This document shows, piece after piece, positions 1-6,318 of a stretch of DNA of 6,318 bases; position 1 is the stretch's first letter, and each line of letters starts with the position of its first letter. The stretch covers positions 1-6,318 of IMG/VR virus record IMGVR_UViG_3300045988_000562; one strand, given 5' to 3'. Source of the DNA: a virus. The position numbers were made by a program, and so were the translations under genes. The notes beneath the pieces are model-generated. The model was given only the letters and a program-made list of their open reading frames with translations. It was not told the origin of the DNA and did no database searches.

Positions 1-55
1 CGAATGACGGAGGCTCTTTTCATCAGTTTAAAACTTCGTCAGAATCTGTAAATAC
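1..55. repeat. Terminal redundancy: 1..55 is identical to 6264..6318, so this is a circular genome with a 6,263-nt unit length, opened inside the capsid gene
   Basis: Exact 55/55 nt identity read directly from the two window ends. The VP1 reading frame is continuous across the junction: 5312 mod 3 = 2, and 6266..6268 corresponds to 3..5. Confidence 0.95.
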
Positions 56-980
56 GGGTTCTGCTTCTTCTAAATCTACTTCTGTCTATCCTCGGTTTCC
101 TGATTCTATATCTATTCGTGGTCAAGCTAATCTTTGGGCTGTTCTTGGAGAATCCCCGGATTTAAATTTAAAATTCTCTGTTCTTGCTCTTCGTCAAGCT
201 GAAGCTCTTCAGAAATGGAAAGAGATTACTCAGTCTGTTGATACCAATTATAGAGATCAGATTAAGGCCCATTTCGGAGTGAATGTTCCCCAGTCCGAGT
301 CTCATATGTCTAAGTATATCGGAGGTGTTGCTCGTAATCTTGATATATCTGAGGTTGTTAATACTTATCTTCCGGGAGACGATTCTTCGGCTTCTGTTTC
401 ATCTTCTCAGGCCTATATATATGGTAAAGGCGTTGGATCTGGCCAAGGTTCTATGACCTTTAGTACTGGTTCAGGTTACTATATTATTATGTGTATATAT
501 CACGCTACTCCTCTTTTGGATTATTCCATTAGTGGTCCAGACGGCCAGCGACTTGTTACTTCTGTTGAGGATCTTCCTATTCCTGAATTTGATAGTATCG
601 GTATGGAATCAGTTCCTGCTGTTGAGCTCATGAATTCAAGTTTGTATTCTAATGTAAACTCTGCGGATAAGATTCTTGGTTATAATCCTCGTTATTATAA
701 TTGGAAAACTAAGATCGATCGCATCCATGGTGCTTTTACTACTACTCTTAAAGATTGGGTTGCTCCTGTTGATGATGCTTTCTTATATTCTTTATTTGGA
801 GGTAATCTTTCAACGTTTAAAGGTGTTACGTGGCCCTTCTTTAAGGTGAATCCGAATACCCTTGATGATATTTTTTCGGTTAAAGTTGATTCTACATGGG
901 AAACTGATCAACTTTTAGTGAATTGTAATGTTGGTTGTTATGTAACTCGCCCATTGTCTGCCGACGGTGTGCCTTATTGA
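1..980 (+). CDS. VP1: Microviridae major capsid protein VP1 (F-like), 3' portion. It continues from 5312..6263 across the circular junction, total about 643 aa. Stop codon TGA at 978..980
   Basis: The frame is open from nt 3 with no upstream stop and is the same frame as the ORF from 5312. The translation reads ...NDGGSFHQFKTSSESVNTGSASSKSTSVYPRFPDSISIRGQANLWAVLGESPDLNLKFSVLALRQAEALQKWKEITQSVDTNYRDQIKAHFGVNVPQSESHMSKYIGGVARNLDISEVVNTY... This is the conserved ALRxAxALQKW / YxDQIxAHFGV / YxGG block of gokushovirus-type capsid proteins. Third-position T codon bias matches the rest of the genome. Confidence 0.93.
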   Translation, partial: NDGGSFHQFKTSSESVNTGSASSKSTSVYPRFPDSISIRGQANLWAVLGESPDLNLKFSVLALRQAEALQKWKEITQSVDTNYRDQIKAHFGVNVPQSESHMSKYIGGVARNLDISEVVNTYLPGDDSSASVSSSQAYIYGKGVGSGQGSMTFSTGSGYYIIMCIYHATPLLDYSISGPDGQRLVTSVEDLPIPEFDSIGMESVPAVELMNSSLYSNVNSADKILGYNPRYYNWKTKIDRIHGAFTTTLKDWVAPVDDAFLYSLFGGNLSTFKGVTWPFFKVNPNTLDDIFSVKVDSTWETDQLLVNCNVGCYVTRPLSADGVPY

Positions 981-987
981 TTAAGTT

Positions 988-1503
988 ATGAAAGAAAAAG
1001 AAGAATATAAAACTAGTGCTTGTTTTGGCCCTGGTTATCGTAGACATGAGTTTATTCGTGAGATTTGTTTGTGTCCTATTTGCGCTTCTTCTGCCCCTGA
1101 TATTGTTCTAGAGGAACTTCCTACTGAACAATTTCGATTTGAGAAAGTGGGAACTAAGGAAAATGAGGCTATTCGTATTCGCTCTGATGTAAGTATGTTA
1201 CTTCATGCTGCTGATATGGCGAAGAAGTATGGTACAGGTTTTGTTCAGTCTATGATTGATATGCGTCGCCCTAGGTCTAGTGCTCTTCAATCTCAAATGG
1301 ATCAGATGTCTGACGCTCAGATTTTAGACACTGTTAAGTCTCGTCATCTTCAATCTCCCTCTGAGTTGATTGCGTGGAGTGAATACCTTATAGAACAAGC
1401 TAAGGATATTGAACAAGAAGCTGAACGTCTTGCTATTGAAAAAGAAGCTTCTGCTGCTGCTTCTTCTGTTGAGTCTCAATCCGATGTAACCAGTACTGAA
1501 TAG
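988..1503 (+). CDS. Hypothetical 171-aa protein. N-terminal Cys4 cluster (C-x14-C-x-C-x2-C) and a very acidic helical C-terminus. Possibly an internal scaffolding (VP3-like) or small zinc-binding protein
   Basis: ORF begins 8 nt after the VP1 stop and ends 2 nt before the VP2 start, giving operon-like packing. Coding-type T3 codon bias. Motif CFGPGYRRHEFIREICLCPIC. C-terminus EQAKDIEQEAERLAIEKEASAAASSVESQSDV is acidic and coiled-coil-like, as in phage scaffolding proteins. No family-specific motif recognised. Confidence 0.6.
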   Translation: MKEKEEYKTSACFGPGYRRHEFIREICLCPICASSAPDIVLEELPTEQFRFEKVGTKENEAIRIRSDVSMLLHAADMAKKYGTGFVQSMIDMRRPRSSALQSQMDQMSDAQILDTVKSRHLQSPSELIAWSEYLIEQAKDIEQEAERLAIEKEASAAASSVESQSDVTSTE

Positions 1504-1505
1504 CT

Positions 1506-2624
1506 ATGGGCCTTCTTGATTTTATTCCTGTTATTGGCGATGTTGCTTCTTTTATTGGTAATACTGTTTCTACAAATAAGACCAATAAGACGAATATGGC
1601 TATCAATCAGATGAACAATGAGTTTAACGCTGCCGAAGCTGAAAAGGCTCGGCAGTTTCAATTGGATATGTGGAATCGTACCAATGAATATAATTCTGCC
1701 TCTGCTCAGCGTTCTCGTCTGGAAGCAGCTGGATTGAATCCCTATTTAATGATGAATGGAGGTTCTGCTGGTACCGCCCAGTCCGCTGGATCTTCTTCTC
1801 CTGCATCTGCTGCTCCTCCTTTGTCTATGCAACGCCAGGATTTTTCTGGTATTAGTAATTCCTTATCTAGTGCTCTTCAGATTGCTAACCAGACTAAGGA
1901 GACTAATGCGGTTGTACAAAATCTCCAAGGCCAGAAGAGTTTGGCTGATGCTCAAGTTAATAGTATTCTTTCTAATGTTGATTGGTATAAGTTGAATCCT
2001 ACTTATAAAAAATGGCTACAGGCTACTGGTTCTTTACGTGCTAATATTCAGTTAAATACTGATAAGCAAAATCTTGATAATATGCGTTGGTCTGGATCTC
2101 TTATTCGAGCACAGCGCGCTGGTCAATTACTAGATAATCGAGCACAGTCTGTTTTAAATAAATATCTTGATCAAGGCCAACAATTACAATTGAATATTGC
2201 TGCTGCCCAGTACGAAGATCTAGTAGCTTCTGGTTATTTAAAATATCAACAGGCTAAGTCTGAATTATCCCGGCGTCTTCTTATGAATGCTCAGGCTAAA
2301 GGTCAAAGGATTTCTAATAATGTTGCTGAAGAGACTGCGGATTCTCTTATAAAAGCATATAATGCTGAGAATCAGGCTTCCTTGGATATTAATAGTCCTT
2401 ATATGACTAAAGAAGGTCGTAAAGATGCTGCTTCTGTTTTGCAAGCTCGTATGAGTTCTCTTAATGAGGAATGGAATTATTCTAAACGTTATTGGAATGA
2501 AGGACTTAATGCTATCAACACTATTGGTAATGCTGTTGGTAATGTAGGTAATGTCCGTCGGCGTCCTGCTCCTCAGACTTTTGTTTATGGTAATCGTACT
2601 TACAATAATTATCGTACTCCATAG
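1506..2624 (+). CDS. VP2: Microviridae VP2 minor capsid / DNA pilot protein (H-like), 372 aa
   Basis: Hydrophobic N-terminus MGLLDFIPVIGDVASFIG followed by the conserved VP2 signature ...ARQFQLDMWNRTNEYNSASAQRSRLEAAGLNPYLMM... (FQxxMWNxxNxYNSxxAQxxRLxxAGLNPYLM). There is a long Q/N/A-rich helical central region, as in the pilot protein. Gene position is immediately downstream of the capsid module. Confidence 0.88.
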   Translation: MGLLDFIPVIGDVASFIGNTVSTNKTNKTNMAINQMNNEFNAAEAEKARQFQLDMWNRTNEYNSASAQRSRLEAAGLNPYLMMNGGSAGTAQSAGSSSPASAAPPLSMQRQDFSGISNSLSSALQIANQTKETNAVVQNLQGQKSLADAQVNSILSNVDWYKLNPTYKKWLQATGSLRANIQLNTDKQNLDNMRWSGSLIRAQRAGQLLDNRAQSVLNKYLDQGQQLQLNIAAAQYEDLVASGYLKYQQAKSELSRRLLMNAQAKGQRISNNVAEETADSLIKAYNAENQASLDINSPYMTKEGRKDAASVLQARMSSLNEEWNYSKRYWNEGLNAINTIGNAVGNVGNVRRRPAPQTFVYGNRTYNNYRTP

Positions 2625-2666
2625 TCGGCGCTTGGCCTCCGTGGCCTGAACGGACCTCAGGTAATT

Positions 2667-2682
2667 GGACGTGGTAACGTCC
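2667..2682. repeat. Perfect 6-bp stem with a 4-nt loop: GGACGT-GGTA-ACGTCC
   Basis: Bases 2667..2672 are the reverse complement of 2677..2682. Read directly from the sequence. Confidence 0.7.
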
Positions 2683-2691
2683 CTTAACGTC
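2675..2691 (+). repeat. Tandem direct 7-mers TAACGTC (2675..2681 and 2685..2691), spaced 10 nt start to start. They look like iterons
   Basis: Read directly. The first copy overlaps the 3' arm of the 2667..2682 hairpin. The pair lies 7 nt upstream of the CTTGATAT octamer. Confidence 0.45.
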
Positions 2692-2697
2692 TAGTAC

Positions 2698-2705
2698 CTT
2701 GATAT
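2698..2705 (+). promoter_or_regulatory. CTTGATAT octamer identical to the core of the phiX174 gene A nick site (CAACTTG^ATATTAATAAC). Candidate Rep (VP4) cleavage site
   Basis: Sequence context is tagtaCCTTGATATCggcgg. There is an 8/8 match to the phiX174 ori core. It lies inside the only non-coding island, flanked by GC hairpins. An 8-mer has roughly 0.2 probability of occurring by chance in a genome of this size, so this is a hypothesis rather than a call. Confidence 0.3.
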
Positions 2706-2715
2706 CGGCGGAGCC

Positions 2716-2741
2716 GCACACCACGCGCGTAGCGTGGGTGC
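2716..2741. repeat. Imperfect 10-bp hairpin: GCAC(A)CCACGC-GCGTA-GCGTGG GTGC
   Basis: 2721..2726 pairs with 2732..2737, and 2716..2719 pairs with 2738..2741 with a one-base bulge. The stem is all G:C rich. Confidence 0.55.
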
Positions 2742-2867
2742 AGTTCCGTCCTTATCTACTCCCATTAGGAAGCCGGCCTCTCTCTCTCAACTGTCTTTCA
2801 TCCCCTATATACCCCTAAAAAAATTTGGCCGCATAGTTAAGTATCTCTGTACTGGCGAAAGCCTTCA

Positions 2868-2943
2868 TCATTTATCCCGTAAGGGTTTTCGGTTAATCTC
2901 CGCCGAAAACTCCCTCCCCTCTTGCCTTATATAGGATAAATGA
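2868..2943. repeat. Perfect 10-nt inverted repeat: TCATTTATCC (2868..2877) and GGATAAATGA (2934..2943). It encloses an internal 8-bp hairpin and a C-rich tract
   Basis: Read directly. The arms are exact reverse complements with 56 nt between them. The enclosed segment contains the ccc-GTAA-ggg GNRA-type mini-hairpin and the 2885..2910 hairpin. The GGC-GAAA-GCC mini-hairpin lies just upstream at 2853..2862. The single-stranded run TCCCTCCCCTCTTGCC follows the inner hairpin. Confidence 0.6.
2885..2910. repeat. Perfect 8-bp stem with a 10-nt loop: GTTTTCGG-TTAATCTCCG-CCGAAAAC
   Basis: 2885..2892 is the reverse complement of 2903..2910. No T-run follows, so it is not a canonical intrinsic terminator. 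Confidence 0.7.
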
Positions 2944-3040
2944 CAGTGTTCCCCCCTCAAAAAAACGATTTTTTTTTGTATTTTAAAAATATATTCTTTT
3001 CTTTGTGTCGTTGTTATAACCATTAAACACTTTTTTTGTT
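2941..3040 (+). promoter_or_regulatory. AT-rich, promoter-like leader upstream of the small-ORF/rep operon. Includes a C6 run and an A7-CGA-T9 homopolymer palindrome (2951..2977)
   Basis: There is an abrupt switch from GC-rich to AT-rich sequence: ...TTCCCCCCTCAAAAAAACGATTTTTTTTTGTATTTTAAAAATATATTCTTTTCTTTGTG... Several TTTG-containing segments resemble Bacteroidetes -7/-33 elements, but I could not find an exact TAnnTTTG match. The first + strand gene starts at 3041. Confidence 0.3.
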
Positions 3041-3253
3041 ATGAGTAAATATATTTCATCTGTTGTGATTATTCTTTCTCCTAAACGAGAGTATTCGTCT
3101 GAGCCTCTTGTATCTAAGGTTCTCGGATTGGATTATGTTTCAGGTGCTACAATTCCTCATGCTACTCATTTTGTTTATAAGAGTCCTCTGATTAAGCCTT
3201 ATCTCTCTAAATATGATATTGTTAGTCTTACATTTAAATATTTTGATTTATGA
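3041..3253 (+). CDS. Hypothetical 70-aa protein, first ORF of the accessory cassette
   Basis: Codon usage matches the phage genes (tct/gtt/att/cct third-position T). The stop overlaps the next start as ATGA (3250..3253). No recognisable motif. Confidence 0.5.
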   Translation: MSKYISSVVIILSPKREYSSEPLVSKVLGLDYVSGATIPHATHFVYKSPLIKPYLSKYDIVSLTFKYFDL

Positions 3254-3447
3254 AAATTACATCTCAGCAATGGATTGAAATCATCAAATTGATTTCTACT
3301 TTTATCATTGGTATTATTACTACTCTTGCTGTACAATCTTGTACTGCGTCTATGTCTATTTCTAAATACAATAGCAATAGTTCTCAGGCAACTGAACAAA
3401 CTTCTACTTCCTCTGTGGATTCGACTAAAATAAATATTGATTATTAA
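3250..3447 (+). CDS. Hypothetical 65-aa lipoprotein-like or single-pass membrane protein
   Basis: Translation is MKITSQQWIEIIKLISTFIIGIITTLAVQSC-TASMSISKYNSNSSQATEQTSTSSVDSTKINIDY. It has an N-terminal hydrophobic helix ending in a lipobox-like LAVQSC, then a Ser/Thr-rich tail. The ATGA start/stop overlap with the upstream ORF indicates translational coupling. Phage-like codon bias. Confidence 0.55.
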   Translation: MKITSQQWIEIIKLISTFIIGIITTLAVQSCTASMSISKYNSNSSQATEQTSTSSVDSTKINIDY

Positions 3448-3465
3448 TTTTTTACAATTACAATT

Positions 3466-3663
3466 ATGAAAGAGAATAATTCTTTATTGGTATCTGTTAA
3501 GTCTAAAAAATCTCAGCCTCAAAGTCAAGGCCGAGTGTATGTTGTTTCAAAGGAAGATATTTCTTCTTTTGTGAAAAAAGTTCTTGATGATGATACTATT
3601 TTGTTGATTGATTCTGTCGAAACTTTTGTTTCTGAACCTCTTTCTATTGACGAGATGTTATGA
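3466..3663 (+). CDS. Hypothetical 65-aa protein with a basic N-terminus and an acidic C-terminus
   Basis: Translation is MKENNSLLVSVKSKKSQPQSQGRVYVVSKEDISSFVKKVLDDDTILLIDSVETFVSEPLSIDEML. The stop TGA (3661..3663) overlaps the rep start ATG (3660..3662) as ATGA, so it is translationally coupled to VP4. Phage-like codon bias. Confidence 0.55.
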   Translation: MKENNSLLVSVKSKKSQPQSQGRVYVVSKEDISSFVKKVLDDDTILLIDSVETFVSEPLSIDEML

Positions 3664-5300
3664 TAAATCAAGAGGTCATAGATAAGTATCTTCTCTCTGA
3701 GTGTCTTCATCCTTGCAAGGTGTTTAATAAGTACACAAATGAAGTTGTATATGCCCCTTGTGGACATTGCTATTCGTGTCTTAAAAATAAGTCGAATCGT
3801 GATACTGCATTAGCTATGAATATTGCTTCAAATTTTAAGTATTGTTATTTTGTTTGGCTTTCTTATGAAGATTCCTATCTTCCTTATATGGAGCTTAAAA
3901 CTATTGATCATTTGGGTGATACTCGTTTTAATTACTCTTTTTCATCTATCAATAGAAATCTGCGTATTTCTGTTCCTAATGGTAAAGATAGGATTATAGA
4001 AGACTCTCCATTTGAGATTACTCATTCTATGACTTCTTCTGAATATCAAGATATTATTGTTAAGAGTCATGGACGTTATGACTTTCTTCGTAAATGCGTT
4101 GTATACCCCCGTTTTGAAGATTGTGATAATCGTATTCCTTATTGTAATACTTCTGATTGTCAGAAGTTTTTAAAGCGTTTAAGATTTCATTCAAAAGATA
4201 AATATAATGAAGAAATACGTTTTTACGGTGTATCAGAATATGGTCCTCGGACATATCGTCCGCATTGGCATTTGCTATTATTCTTTAACTCGGACAAACT
4301 CGCCTCGTCTATACAGCAACTTGTATTTGAGAGTTGGTCCTACGGTCGTACAACTTGTGAATTATCGAGAGGAAGCGCTGCTTCCTACGTTGCGTCGTAT
4401 GTTAATAGTAATGTATGCTTACCTTCACTATACGTCCAGCACAAAGAGATTAGGGCGCGTTCCTTCCACTCTAAAGGATATGCAAACAATCATGTCTTTC
4501 CCACTCAAGCCTCGATACATGAGCTTGATAAAATGTCCTCTATCCTCCTTGATGGAGAAAGCATCTCTATTAATGGTGAAACTAAGCGAATCTACCCTTC
4601 ACGGGCGTATAAATGTACCGCATTCCCCAGATTCTCGAATCTTGTTTGCAAATCTCCATATAGCAGTGCTTACTTATTTTCAGCTGCGTTCTTTGCACCC
4701 GAGAGGCTCATTCGTTTCGGATATTTGGACATAACTTATGACAAGTCTATTTCTCCTGTATCTGAACTTGCTTATGCTTATACTGATTTTTTTTTAGATC
4801 GTGAAGATAAAGGGTTTGTTCATTCTGATGATGAACTTATCGTTGCTGCTGTTCGTCTTGATGCTCCTAATCGTAAGTATTGGCATTGTCTTACTTATGA
4901 TCAAATTCGTAGTAAATTTTACAGGCTTTTTAATACAGTTATTCGTTCTGCTCGGTTTTGGAATTTATTTGGATGTGTAGATGTTTATCGTCGAGGTCCT
5001 ATTTACGCCCTTATGGAAGCATCTGATAATTATTGGAATGAATTTGCTCGTCGTCAGCTTCATGATTATTATGAATTTCTTGAAAGTTGTAGTGAAGAGC
5101 AGCGTTCTTTTTTATTTTCTCGGTCTGTTTATAATGAAATAAAGAACTCTACTAAAGAGATTAAAAAAGAATATTCTTATGATTACGAACTGAGTGACAA
5201 ATTCCTTAAAGAGTTAATCGCTATTAATCGGAAGGCGTGCGTGGATAAGATTAAACATAAGGAATTTAATGATCTTAGTGGTTTATTGTTAAATACTTAA
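3660..5300 (+). CDS. VP4: Microviridae replication initiation protein VP4 (gene A-like HUH rolling-circle endonuclease), 546 aa
   Basis: N-terminal Cys/His cluster CLHPCKVF...YAPCGHCYSCLKN, typical of gokushovirus Rep. HUH motif RPHWHLLLFF (HWH codons at 4263..4271). Catalytic tyrosine motif SYVASYVNSN (Tyr codons at 4386..4388 and 4398..4400). It is followed by a roughly 300-aa C-terminal region. Confidence 0.9.
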   Translation: MINQEVIDKYLLSECLHPCKVFNKYTNEVVYAPCGHCYSCLKNKSNRDTALAMNIASNFKYCYFVWLSYEDSYLPYMELKTIDHLGDTRFNYSFSSINRNLRISVPNGKDRIIEDSPFEITHSMTSSEYQDIIVKSHGRYDFLRKCVVYPRFEDCDNRIPYCNTSDCQKFLKRLRFHSKDKYNEEIRFYGVSEYGPRTYRPHWHLLLFFNSDKLASSIQQLVFESWSYGRTTCELSRGSAASYVASYVNSNVCLPSLYVQHKEIRARSFHSKGYANNHVFPTQASIHELDKMSSILLDGESISINGETKRIYPSRAYKCTAFPRFSNLVCKSPYSSAYLFSAAFFAPERLIRFGYLDITYDKSISPVSELAYAYTDFFLDREDKGFVHSDDELIVAAVRLDAPNRKYWHCLTYDQIRSKFYRLFNTVIRSARFWNLFGCVDVYRRGPIYALMEASDNYWNEFARRQLHDYYEFLESCSEEQRSFLFSRSVYNEIKNSTKEIKKEYSYDYELSDKFLKELIAINRKACVDKIKHKEFNDLSGLLLNT

Positions 5301-5311
5301 TTTTTTTTATT

Positions 5312-6318
5312 ATGTCTCATTTTACTGGTCTTAAGGAGTTGCAGAATAGGCCTCACAAATCAGGTCATGATATCTCCGCTAAGAATTGTTTTACGGCTAA
5401 GGTTGGAGAGTTGCTCCCCGTGTGGACTGATTTTGCAATTCCGAATTCTACTTACAGATTCAATCTTGAGTATTTTACTCGTACTCGCCCAGTGCAGACT
5501 TCTGCGTATACTCGCATTCGTGAGTATTTTGATTTTTTTGCGGTTCCTTGTGACCTTATTTGGAAATCATTTGATTCTGCTGTGATTCAAATGGGTGAAA
5601 AAGCTCCTCTTCAATCTAAGGATTTGTTGTCTAATCTTGCTGTTAAAGGAGATTTACCTCATTGTACCCTTAATGATTTGAGCATTTCTTTGTATTCTGC
5701 AGCTGGAAATCCTCATCAATTAGGTGATGATGTTTCTGTTGTATCTGGATATGGTAATATTTTTGGTTACAATCGTGGAGATGTAAATCATAAATTACTC
5801 TCCATGTTGGATTATGGTAACGTTGTTGCCAAGACTGATTCTAAAATTGGTACTGGTACCAATCGTTGGTGGAATATGCAATCAGCATTAACAGATTCTT
5901 CTAAATATTCTCAGAAGTACAATGTGAATTTGACTGTCGAATTGATGACTCTTGCTAGTTATCAAAAGATTTACCAGGATTTTTTTCGTTGGTCTCAATG
6001 GGAAAATGCCGATCCGACTTCGTATAATTTTGATTGGTATACCGGTTCTGGAAATATTTTTTCTACTGGTATTTCTTCTGTGATTCCTCCTAATAATAGT
6101 TATTGGAAGCGAGATAATTTATTCTCTCTTCGCTATGCTAATTGGAATAAAGATAAATTTATGGGTATTCTCCCGAATTCCCAATTTGGTGATCTTGCAG
6201 TAGTTGATCTTGGTACAATTGCTACTACTGGATCTAAGATTCCGGTAGGTGCTTATGATCTTTCGAATGACGGAGGCTCTTTTCATCAGTTTAAAACTTC
6301 GTCAGAATCTGTAAATAC
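5312..6318 (+). CDS. VP1: Microviridae major capsid protein VP1, 5' portion. It runs off the window end and continues at 1..980
   Basis: ATG at 5312 lies 11 nt after the VP4 stop. Translation is MSHFTGLKELQNRPHKSGHDISAKNCFTAKVGELLPVWTDFAIPNSTYRFNLEYFTRTRPVQTSAYTRIREYFDFFAVPCDLIW......NWNKDKFMGILPNSQFGDLAVVDLG... This is the classic VP1 N-terminus with the L-P-Q-FGD block. I found no in-frame stop through 6318 by manual codon reading. The ORF track omits it because it has no stop inside the window. Confidence 0.93.
   Translation, partial: MSHFTGLKELQNRPHKSGHDISAKNCFTAKVGELLPVWTDFAIPNSTYRFNLEYFTRTRPVQTSAYTRIREYFDFFAVPCDLIWKSFDSAVIQMGEKAPLQSKDLLSNLAVKGDLPHCTLNDLSISLYSAAGNPHQLGDDVSVVSGYGNIFGYNRGDVNHKLLSMLDYGNVVAKTDSKIGTGTNRWWNMQSALTDSSKYSQKYNVNLTVELMTLASYQKIYQDFFRWSQWENADPTSYNFDWYTGSGNIFSTGISSVIPPNNSYWKRDNLFSLRYANWNKDKFMGILPNSQFGDLAVVDLGTIATTGSKIPVGAYDLSNDGGSFHQFKTSSESVN
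6264..6318. repeat. Second copy of the 55-nt terminal redundancy (identical to 1..55)
   Basis: Exact identity. See feature 1..55. Confidence 0.95.

Follow-up and report, generated by a model that had tools for sequence, protein, structure and literature searches.

Introduction

Microviruses are among the commonest gut phages and, to our knowledge, replication origins are unknown for almost all of the uncultured ones. Single-strand origins (sso) of rolling-circle replication plasmids, like the element described here, behave as cassettes shared across Reps. Mini-hairpin DNA of the GCGNAGC/GCGNNAGC class is found at the complementary-strand initiation sites of the phages G4 (CGGCGAAAGCCG), St-1 and alpha3 (both GCGTTAGC), and also in RSF1010 ssiA and the N4 virion-polymerase promoters (GCGGAGC); such mini-hairpins bind single-strand-binding protein (SSB) poorly and their RNA versions are far less stable, as set out in a review by the discoverer of the motif (PMC13037366). 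In other microviruses, intergenic hairpins that covary have been suggested to serve as negative-strand origins (PMC9865509). Here we analyse a 6,318-nucleotide (nt) stretch of viral DNA, positions 1 to 6,318 of IMG/VR record IMGVR_UViG_3300045988_000562 (hereafter the window; positions are on its + strand unless a strand is given), and in particular its region 2667-2705. An earlier note had described this region as a candidate recognition and cleavage module for the Rep protein, composed of a perfect 6-bp hairpin (GGACGT/GGTA/ACGTCC, 2667-2682), two TAACGTC copies one helical turn apart, taken as iterons (2675-2681 and 2685-2691), and the octamer CTTGATAT of the phiX174 nick site (2698-2705), all within the only non-coding island of the window (2625-3040). 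Every one of these features can be read from the sequence, and the region very probably acts in cis in replication, at a place outside the Rep gene; its assignment as a nick site is doubtful. We found that it lies inside a conserved structured cassette of ~185 nt ("module A", 2633-2815), for which we favour, with a probability of about 0.6, the role of a host-directed complementary-strand origin acting as folded single-stranded DNA.

A conserved cassette in microviruses with different Rep proteins

To define the extent of the cassette we used an nhmmer profile, which matches the window at 2633-2818. The profile search recovered the cassette from 113 distinct microvirus contigs, in one copy per genome, and nearly all of these contigs are 5-6.6 kb in length. 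Of the few longer contigs, those checked proved to be concatemers; in that of the relative L061, for example, two copies lie 5,954 nt apart. BLASTN of the island against GenBank phages matched 18 microvirus records, and in the distant ones the match is limited to approximately 2635-2745 of the window. The cassette itself is unannotated in the GenBank records examined, a few of which overlay part of it with a hypothetical-protein coding sequence, and literature searches found no description of the element. Pattern scans retrieved it from IMG/VR and from metagenomes; 6 of 56 metagenome pattern matches were due to chance, four of them on contigs >20 kb, and all true metagenome copies reside on contigs of <=13 kb.

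Relatives were also sampled by protein homology instead of by the motif, with the same outcome. The cassette was present in 8 of 8 relatives of the window Rep (546 aa); for a small Rep of ~345 aa the figure was 26 of 27, over relatives extending down to 59% identity. The two Rep types are very different: alignment of the window Rep with the 345-aa Rep of L006 is confined to the surroundings of the catalytic motifs (E=0.002), and the cassettes of lineages with Reps this divergent are ~75-80% identical. The sole sampled relative without the cassette, L143, has a Rep that is 43% identical to the L006 query. Its non-coding region after Rep, on the T-rich strand (L143:2140-2620, -), contains four to five CTAGTAT repeats and a TTGATATTG, and may represent a different origin with true repeats.

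Outside microviruses the cassette was not encountered. A 20-base core pattern gave two matches in 185,579 bacterial and archaeal genomes, which is the number expected by chance, and their flanks are dissimilar. In the absence of a true chromosomal copy in this set, we rejected a host-derived attP, a host RNA gene or a copied dif site as the identity of the element. Likewise, a search of 72,556 plasmids gave no match, and a plasmid sso cassette was rejected on these grounds. Rfam 15 returned no match over the whole window at E<=1, and at E<=10 only chance-level matches outside the cassette, while ARAGORN found no tRNA or tmRNA in the window.

It is this conservation, and not word counts, that raises region 2667-2705 above chance. 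The window has three copies of the octamer CTTGATAT (339+, 2698+ and 4043-), where 0.43 are expected, and likewise three of TAACGTC, where 0.47 are expected; both counts are uninformative by themselves. The copy at 4043-4050 (-) lies near a TAACGTC and was rejected because its flanks are unlike the element. The copy at 339-346 was rejected as an intragenic origin, as it encodes residues N-L-D-I of the conserved capsid motif ARNLDISEV, and it is lacking in L068 and L004. At this and homologous sites, AATCTTGATAT(T/A)TC is conserved within the capsid gene across the large-Rep lineages, which is probably a coding coincidence.

Compensatory substitutions maintain a set of hairpins

We characterized the fold of the cassette in an alignment of 45 representatives with pairwise identities of at most 93%. 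In the proposed hairpins, 93% of the alignment cells are paired, compared to 30-42% when the partners are slid by 1-3 columns. Double-sided changes were observed in 181 cells versus 58 +/- 7 in shuffles, and none of 500 shuffles reached 181. Since G.T pairs exceed A.C pairs by 73 to 19 on the strand as written, this is the strand that folds. The G.T:A.C ratio is 17:3 in genomes that carry the cassette in gene orientation and 16:8 in those that carry it inverted.

The 5' part of the cassette contains hairpin Pa (helix 2, 2639-2653; CCGT, loop GGCCTGA, ACGG), with 97.7% of its cells paired and two of its four pairs changed on both sides (CG:28, GC:11; UA:35, CG:5). Pa can be extended by an optional and weaker helix, P0 (helix 1, 87% paired), in which GCCT (2635-2638) pairs with AGGT (2659-2662). 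The perfect hairpin of the earlier note, here Pb (helix 3, 2667-2682), is 95.6% paired, and five of its six pairs change on both sides (for example GC:28/AU:17 and CG:18/GC:16/AU:5), so that it is a real structure under selection. It is followed by the mini-hairpin Pm (2687-2695; AC-GTCTA-GT, consensus GC-G(N)CTA-GC), which has a covarying stem of only 2 bp. This stem, closed by a G...A loop, occurs without any mismatch in three forms: GC/GC (84 distinct elements), AC/GT (9) and GT/AC (2). The AC/GT form arose in two separate lineages, the subclade of the window and, independently, L100/L121; one lineage carries Pm as GCGTTAGC.

Ten unpaired nucleotides, ACCTTGATAT (2696-2705), separate Pm from the next mini-hairpin and hold the octamer, which falls within the best-conserved unpaired stretch of the cassette. 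This next mini-hairpin, Pc (helix 4, 2706-2716; CGGC-GGA-GCCG, which contains GCGGAGC), is 100% paired, and its third pair varies as GC:29, AU:8, CG:7 and UA:1. Most copies read CGGC-GAA-GCCG, making GCGAAGC the commonest form; the loop census comprises GAA, AAA, GGA, AGA and GTA, and the closing pair is always C.G. Hairpin Pd (helix 5, 2719-2740; CACC-A-CGCGC / GTA / GCGTG-GGTG) is 98.8% paired, has a conserved bulged A and a G.T wobble, and shows changes on both sides in five of nine pairs; the pair at columns 107/121 is GC:27 and GU:16. The minimum-free-energy register for Pd (GCAC/GTGC plus CCACGC/GCGTGG) was rejected because A-to-G and T-to-C changes in L008, L009 and L068 fit CACC/GGTG. 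A weak hairpin, Pe (helix 6, 2750-2769; CCTTA ... TTAGG), is only 75% paired and is tentative, unlike the well-supported Pa, Pb, Pc and Pd. The cassette ends in a 3' block seen in the alignments, CCCCTATATACCCC (2802-2815), with the family pattern CCC[T/G]NTATAC[A/C]CC.

Two further pairings were considered. Folding predicts that GATA of the core pairs with TATC (2753-2756); this pairing was rejected, as the core variants do not covary with it. A long-range helix between GGCGGAGC (2707-2714) and GTTCCGTCC (2743-2751) would compete with Pc. It shows compensatory changes inside the lineage of the window (GAA/CTTTG, AAA/CTTTG, AGA/CTCTG) but not in others, and may be an alternative conformer or a conformational switch. 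We also observed a second core-like motif at the 5' boundary of the cassette, which precedes the core by ~75-90 nt and has the direct orientation: it reads CATAGTCGG in the window (2620-2628, overlapping the pilot gene stop codon), TTGATAGTCGG in close relatives and ATAGTATCTT in other lineages.

The two 7-mers are not iterons, in the sense of at least two direct repeats conserved in sequence and spacing beside a nick site. Each TAACGTC copy is part of a different covarying hairpin, and the repeat is not conserved. The first copy forms the 3' side of the Pb stem, an arm that is free to vary among relatives, and the second is the 5' arm plus loop of Pm, for which the consensus is TTAGCG(A/T)C. 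The second copy reads TAACGTC because the subclade of the window has the A.T version of a G.C pair, and the spacing of one helical turn is a coincidence confined to this subclade.

A probable complementary-strand origin

Several features of the cassette are those to be looked for in a complementary-strand origin. It is a strand-specific non-coding structure kept by compensatory changes, it is independent of Rep, being common to different Rep families, and it contains mini-hairpins of the class introduced above, namely Pc and Pm, with two further ones in the adjacent module C described below. The selected 2-bp stem and the free exchange of 3-nt and 4-nt G...A loops suit DNA, and for this reason we favour DNA rather than RNA as the acting molecule. 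In the mechanism that we propose, the element on the packaged strand would show a host enzyme where to begin complementary-strand synthesis once the phage has infected the cell. Its short hairpins, four to five in number and including Pb, would resist coating by SSB. Two of them, GC-G(N)CTA-GC and CGGC-GRA-GCCG, are DNA mini-hairpins of the GNA/GNNA type, and between them the naked 10-nt core with its octamer would be exposed. Host primase or RNA polymerase could then recognise this arrangement and lay a primer. The conservation, covariation, strand asymmetry, mini-hairpin motifs and cross-lineage distribution of the cassette are observed; from them we infer its action as DNA, its host-factor partner and the priming at the element.

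The orientation of the cassette may bear on strand polarity. Genomes with a large Rep (~550 aa), including the window, carry the cassette in gene orientation, while lineages with the ~345-aa Rep carry it downstream of Rep on the opposite strand. Despite this difference, the cassette resides on the T- and G-rich strand in 99 of 99 genomes, 42 of which are same-orientation and 57 inverted. At third codon positions, the AT skew of the coding strand is -0.54 in the same-orientation and +0.46 in the inverted genomes, and the GC skew is +0.21 and -0.23, respectively. The coding strands of phiX174, Chp1, Chp2 and SpV4 have T>A and G>C, so that by composition the T- and G-rich strand is the virion strand in these four phages. 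The mirror-image skew suggests that the inverted group packages the negative-sense strand. Packaging of the mRNA complement is proposed because the cassette and a phiX-like motif (module B, below) both lie on the antisense strand in this group, the composition of which mirrors that of phiX174. As a reading with somewhat less than even odds, we tentatively propose that the packaged strand is marked by the cassette, acting as a portable and host-specific single-strand origin, and that the inverted lineages are negative-sense microviruses. We know of no described microviruses of this polarity.

Several points weigh against the cassette being a complementary-strand origin of this kind. Composition is a proxy for the packaged strand, and the coding strand of the cultured gokushovirus phiMH2K is A- and C-rich. 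Only two deep clades may underlie the agreement between orientation and skew, which does not amount to 99 independent events. The excess of G.T over A.C pairs is weak in the inverted lineages. In the window, the element would be transcribed as a 3' untranslated region (UTR), leaving room for a role as RNA. Finally, the non-coding DNA of this genome has no other CTTGATAT, and the core could therefore still serve Rep here.

The core octamer as a possible Rep nick site

The strongest of the alternatives, which we nevertheless consider unlikely, retains the function given to the octamer in the earlier note and dispenses with the iterons: ACCTTG^ATAT would be the nick site of Rep (VP4) at the viral-strand origin of this genome. 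The core would be held single-stranded between stable hairpins, Pb and Pm would serve as positioning elements, and the cassette would hold both origins, in the manner of the Ff phage intergenic region. Ten of 12 bases agree with the start of the phiX174 origin, CAACTTGATATT; the Rep has an HUH motif (HWHLLLF) and a phiX-like two-tyrosine motif (YVASYVN); and the core, which is unpaired and on the T-rich strand, provides the sole non-coding CTTGATAT of this genome. The core variants TAGTAT and TAATAT also resemble what we take to be the nick motifs of other HUH replicons. Beyond this the similarity to phiX174 is limited: the window contains nothing that matches the first 18 nt of the phiX174 origin with 3 or fewer mismatches, and of the ~30-nt origin CAACTTGATATTAATAACACTATAGACCAC only CTTGATAT and 2 flanking bases agree. 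The octamer is intergenic and outside the Rep gene (3660-5300), whereas the phiX174 origin is at 4306, inside gene A. A phiX-like motif was also sought in phiMH2K and SpV4, with only chance-level matches.

The relationship between core and Rep also argues against a nick site. In a census with a pattern that left the core segment free, TTGATATC was counted 62 times, ATAGTATC 14 times, TTAGTATC 5 times, and TTAGCATC and TTAGTACC once each; the core of L090 is TTAATATC. The family pattern of 2696-2705 is C-[T/A]-T-R-R-T-A-T-C-G, conserved yet not invariant. Among relatives the octamer thus keeps its position while its sequence drifts, and the 7-mers fail as conserved repeats. The two purines around the phiX-type scissile bond interchange (GA, AG, AA) even within one clade. 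L068 (TTGATATC) and L120 (TTAGCATC) have Reps that are 96% identical and octamers that differ at 3 of 8 positions, and the Reps of L104 (TTAGTATC) and L113 (ATAGTATC) are 93% identical. Thus, the bases flanking the putative nick are not constant under near-identical Reps, and the same core recurs in lineages whose Reps differ greatly. A site recognised by Rep would be expected to follow Rep, which the cassette does not do, and this makes the nick-site assignment doubtful.

Elements that do track Rep type were found elsewhere. The inverted lineages have a second non-coding module, module B, on the T-rich (antisense) strand in the gap that separates the capsid gene from the pilot gene; 74 of 79 inverted loci carry it, as against 0 of 53 same-orientation loci. 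Examples, all outside the window, are L020:3194-3290, L114:5201-5297 and L067:2415-2511 (+), in addition to 71 other loci. Module B consists of a covarying hairpin, a spacer of ~12 nt and then (T/A)TACTTGATAT(T/A)A(A/T)AT. Its ACTTGATATTAA is 12/12 identical to the phiX174 origin, and it stays CTTGATAT where the cassette core reads CATAGTAT, as in L114. The hairpins of module B were seen by eye; RNAalifold gave no consensus on the raw MAFFT alignment, in which they are misaligned. We regard module B as a candidate site of Rep nicking, located on the strand opposite to all of the genes. The cassette core shares with module B the order of hairpin, ~12-15 nt and CTTGATAT, which is in favour of a nick site in the window. 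However, the small-Rep lineages thereby own a much better site elsewhere, with its own covarying hairpin, and if one strand could be cut at two sites in direct orientation, subgenomic circles would result.

The large-Rep lineages have a module of their own. Module C (2854-2885) consists of two mini-hairpins, GGC-GAAA-GCC (2854-2863) and CCC-GTAA-GGG (2876-2885), whose loops switch between 3 and 4 nt among relatives (GAA/GAAA, GTA/GTAA). It was found in 47 loci, all from large-Rep lineages and always on the cassette strand; every large-Rep lineage has it, and it is absent from small-Rep lineages. Immediately downstream, and conserved in close relatives, are a hairpin TTTTCGG...CCGAAAA (2886-2909), an 11-nt spacer and CTTGCCTTAT..GATAAATGACAG (2921-2946). 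The geometry of 2886-2946 resembles the hairpin plus CTTG of module B, and we infer that this segment may be an alternative candidate for the Rep-specific origin of this lineage. Modules B and C follow Rep type and the cassette goes with both types, a pattern suggesting that B and C are specific to Rep and that the cassette is directed to the host.

RNA, recombination and packaging alternatives

It is improbable that the element is a structured non-coding RNA, which would be a processed 3' UTR domain in the window and an independently transcribed antisense gene where inverted, acting on a host factor in, for example, anti-defence, as a decoy or in mRNA stabilisation. Consistent with an RNA are the strong covariation with G.U-type pairs, an RNA fold z-score of -4.2, the independence of orientation from the genes and, in some inverted genomes, a TAtcTTTA box just upstream that weakly resembles what we take to be the Bacteroidetes -7 element. 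However, no promoter-like sequence is conserved across lineages, a scan of 2400-3200 found no sigma-70 promoter or intrinsic terminator above shuffles, and Rfam has no match within the element even at E<=10. Covarying 2-bp stems, and C(GNA)G triloops that swap with GNNA, are traits of DNA mini-hairpins and are far less stable as RNA. The orientation always follows the T-rich strand, which an RNA gene would not need.

Least probable is a recombination or packaging site, that is, a folded single-stranded attP for host XerC/D, as in CTX phage, or a packaging signal. Packaging in phiX174 is coupled to Rep-driven synthesis, which counts against the latter. In favour of such a site, the order of the genes (Rep, capsid, pilot) and a size of ~6.3 kb are reminiscent of Bacteroidetes proviruses, and there is the second core-like motif at the 5' edge of the cassette; but neither a copy nor a half-site of the core pattern occurs in the 185,579 genomes searched, and a long forked hairpin whose two arms are inverted 28-bp dif-like sequences was not seen, although this was not examined in depth. 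The related Bacteroidetes microvirus proviruses are flanked by dif-like sites, and some of these proviruses carry two (PMC3091885).

Genome context

The ends of the window share an exact 55-nt repeat (1-55 = 6264-6318), indicating that it is a complete, circularly permuted microvirus genome of 6,263 nt. Every long open reading frame (ORF) is on the + strand: the capsid gene, which wraps around the window ends and stops at 980, the scaffold gene (988-1503), the pilot gene (1506-2624), three small ORFs (3041-3663) and the gene for the 546-aa Rep, which matches Pfam REP_ORF2-G2P (E=1e-13). The GenBank relatives Dulem viruses 244 and 245 have the same annotation. Between the pilot gene and the small ORFs lies the sole non-coding island, as the earlier note had recognised; the remaining gene junctions are 0-18 nt and the annotations of relatives concur. 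The island has a G+C content of ~50% as compared to ~35% in the rest of the window. Upstream of the small ORFs, at 2975-3005 (+), we observed TTTG, 19 nt and TTTCTTTG, in place of which relatives carry TATATTTG. This resembles what we take to be the Bacteroidetes -33/-7 promoter consensus and hints at a Bacteroidetes host.

Comparison with known systems

The cassette is a sequence-defined marker that is easy to search for, and priming and nicking assays could be run on it directly. Its mini-hairpins, one of them with a covarying stem of 2 bp, are natural cases of selected mini-hairpin DNA, and it may allow metagenomic microvirus genomes to be oriented by packaged strand. If the strand inference is true, a major group of microviruses has a polarity opposite to that of the textbook.

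The closest known systems are the complementary-strand origins of G4, St-1 and alpha3 (primase-dependent oric), which are likewise non-coding clusters of short hairpins; these origins lie on the virion strand, as the cassette may do. The mini-hairpin of G4, CGGCGAAAGCCG, is a near match to Pc of the window, and that of St-1 and alpha3 is the same GCGTTAGC that forms Pm in one cassette lineage. The phiX174 F-G intergenic hairpin region has GCGAAGC at 2358, as in the commonest form of Pc. The cassette differs from these regions in that it is larger (~185 nt, with at least 5 hairpins), has no homology to them beyond the mini-hairpins and probably resides in Bacteroidetes hosts, and its priming role is putative.

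With the phiX174 viral-strand origin (CAACTTG^ATATTAATAAC) the cassette has in common CTTGATAT, 10 of the first 12 bases and the location on the T-rich strand, and the window Rep resembles gene A-type Reps in its HUH and YxxxY motifs. Unlike that origin, the core is outside the Rep gene, flanked by hairpins and variable in close relatives, and the rest of the 30 nt is unmatched. Rolling-circle plasmid sso, as we understand their behaviour, are also strand- and orientation-specific folded DNA, depend on the host rather than on Rep, as the cassette probably does, and, like the cassette, are common to unrelated Reps, and the consensus TAGCGT resembles what we take to be the ssoA CS-6 hexamer. In contrast to sso, the cassette is unmatched in the plasmids searched and was found only in microviruses. 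The Ff filamentous phage intergenic region presumably offers a parallel in layout, a single island with several single-stranded DNA hairpins, both origins and a promoter nearby; the cassette is unrelated to it in sequence. The hairpins of reekeekee- and roodoodoo-microviruses are also covarying, non-coding and proposed as negative-strand origins (PMC9865509). Whereas those are single or double and clade-specific, the cassette comprises multiple hairpins and is shared by deep lineages in both gene orientations.

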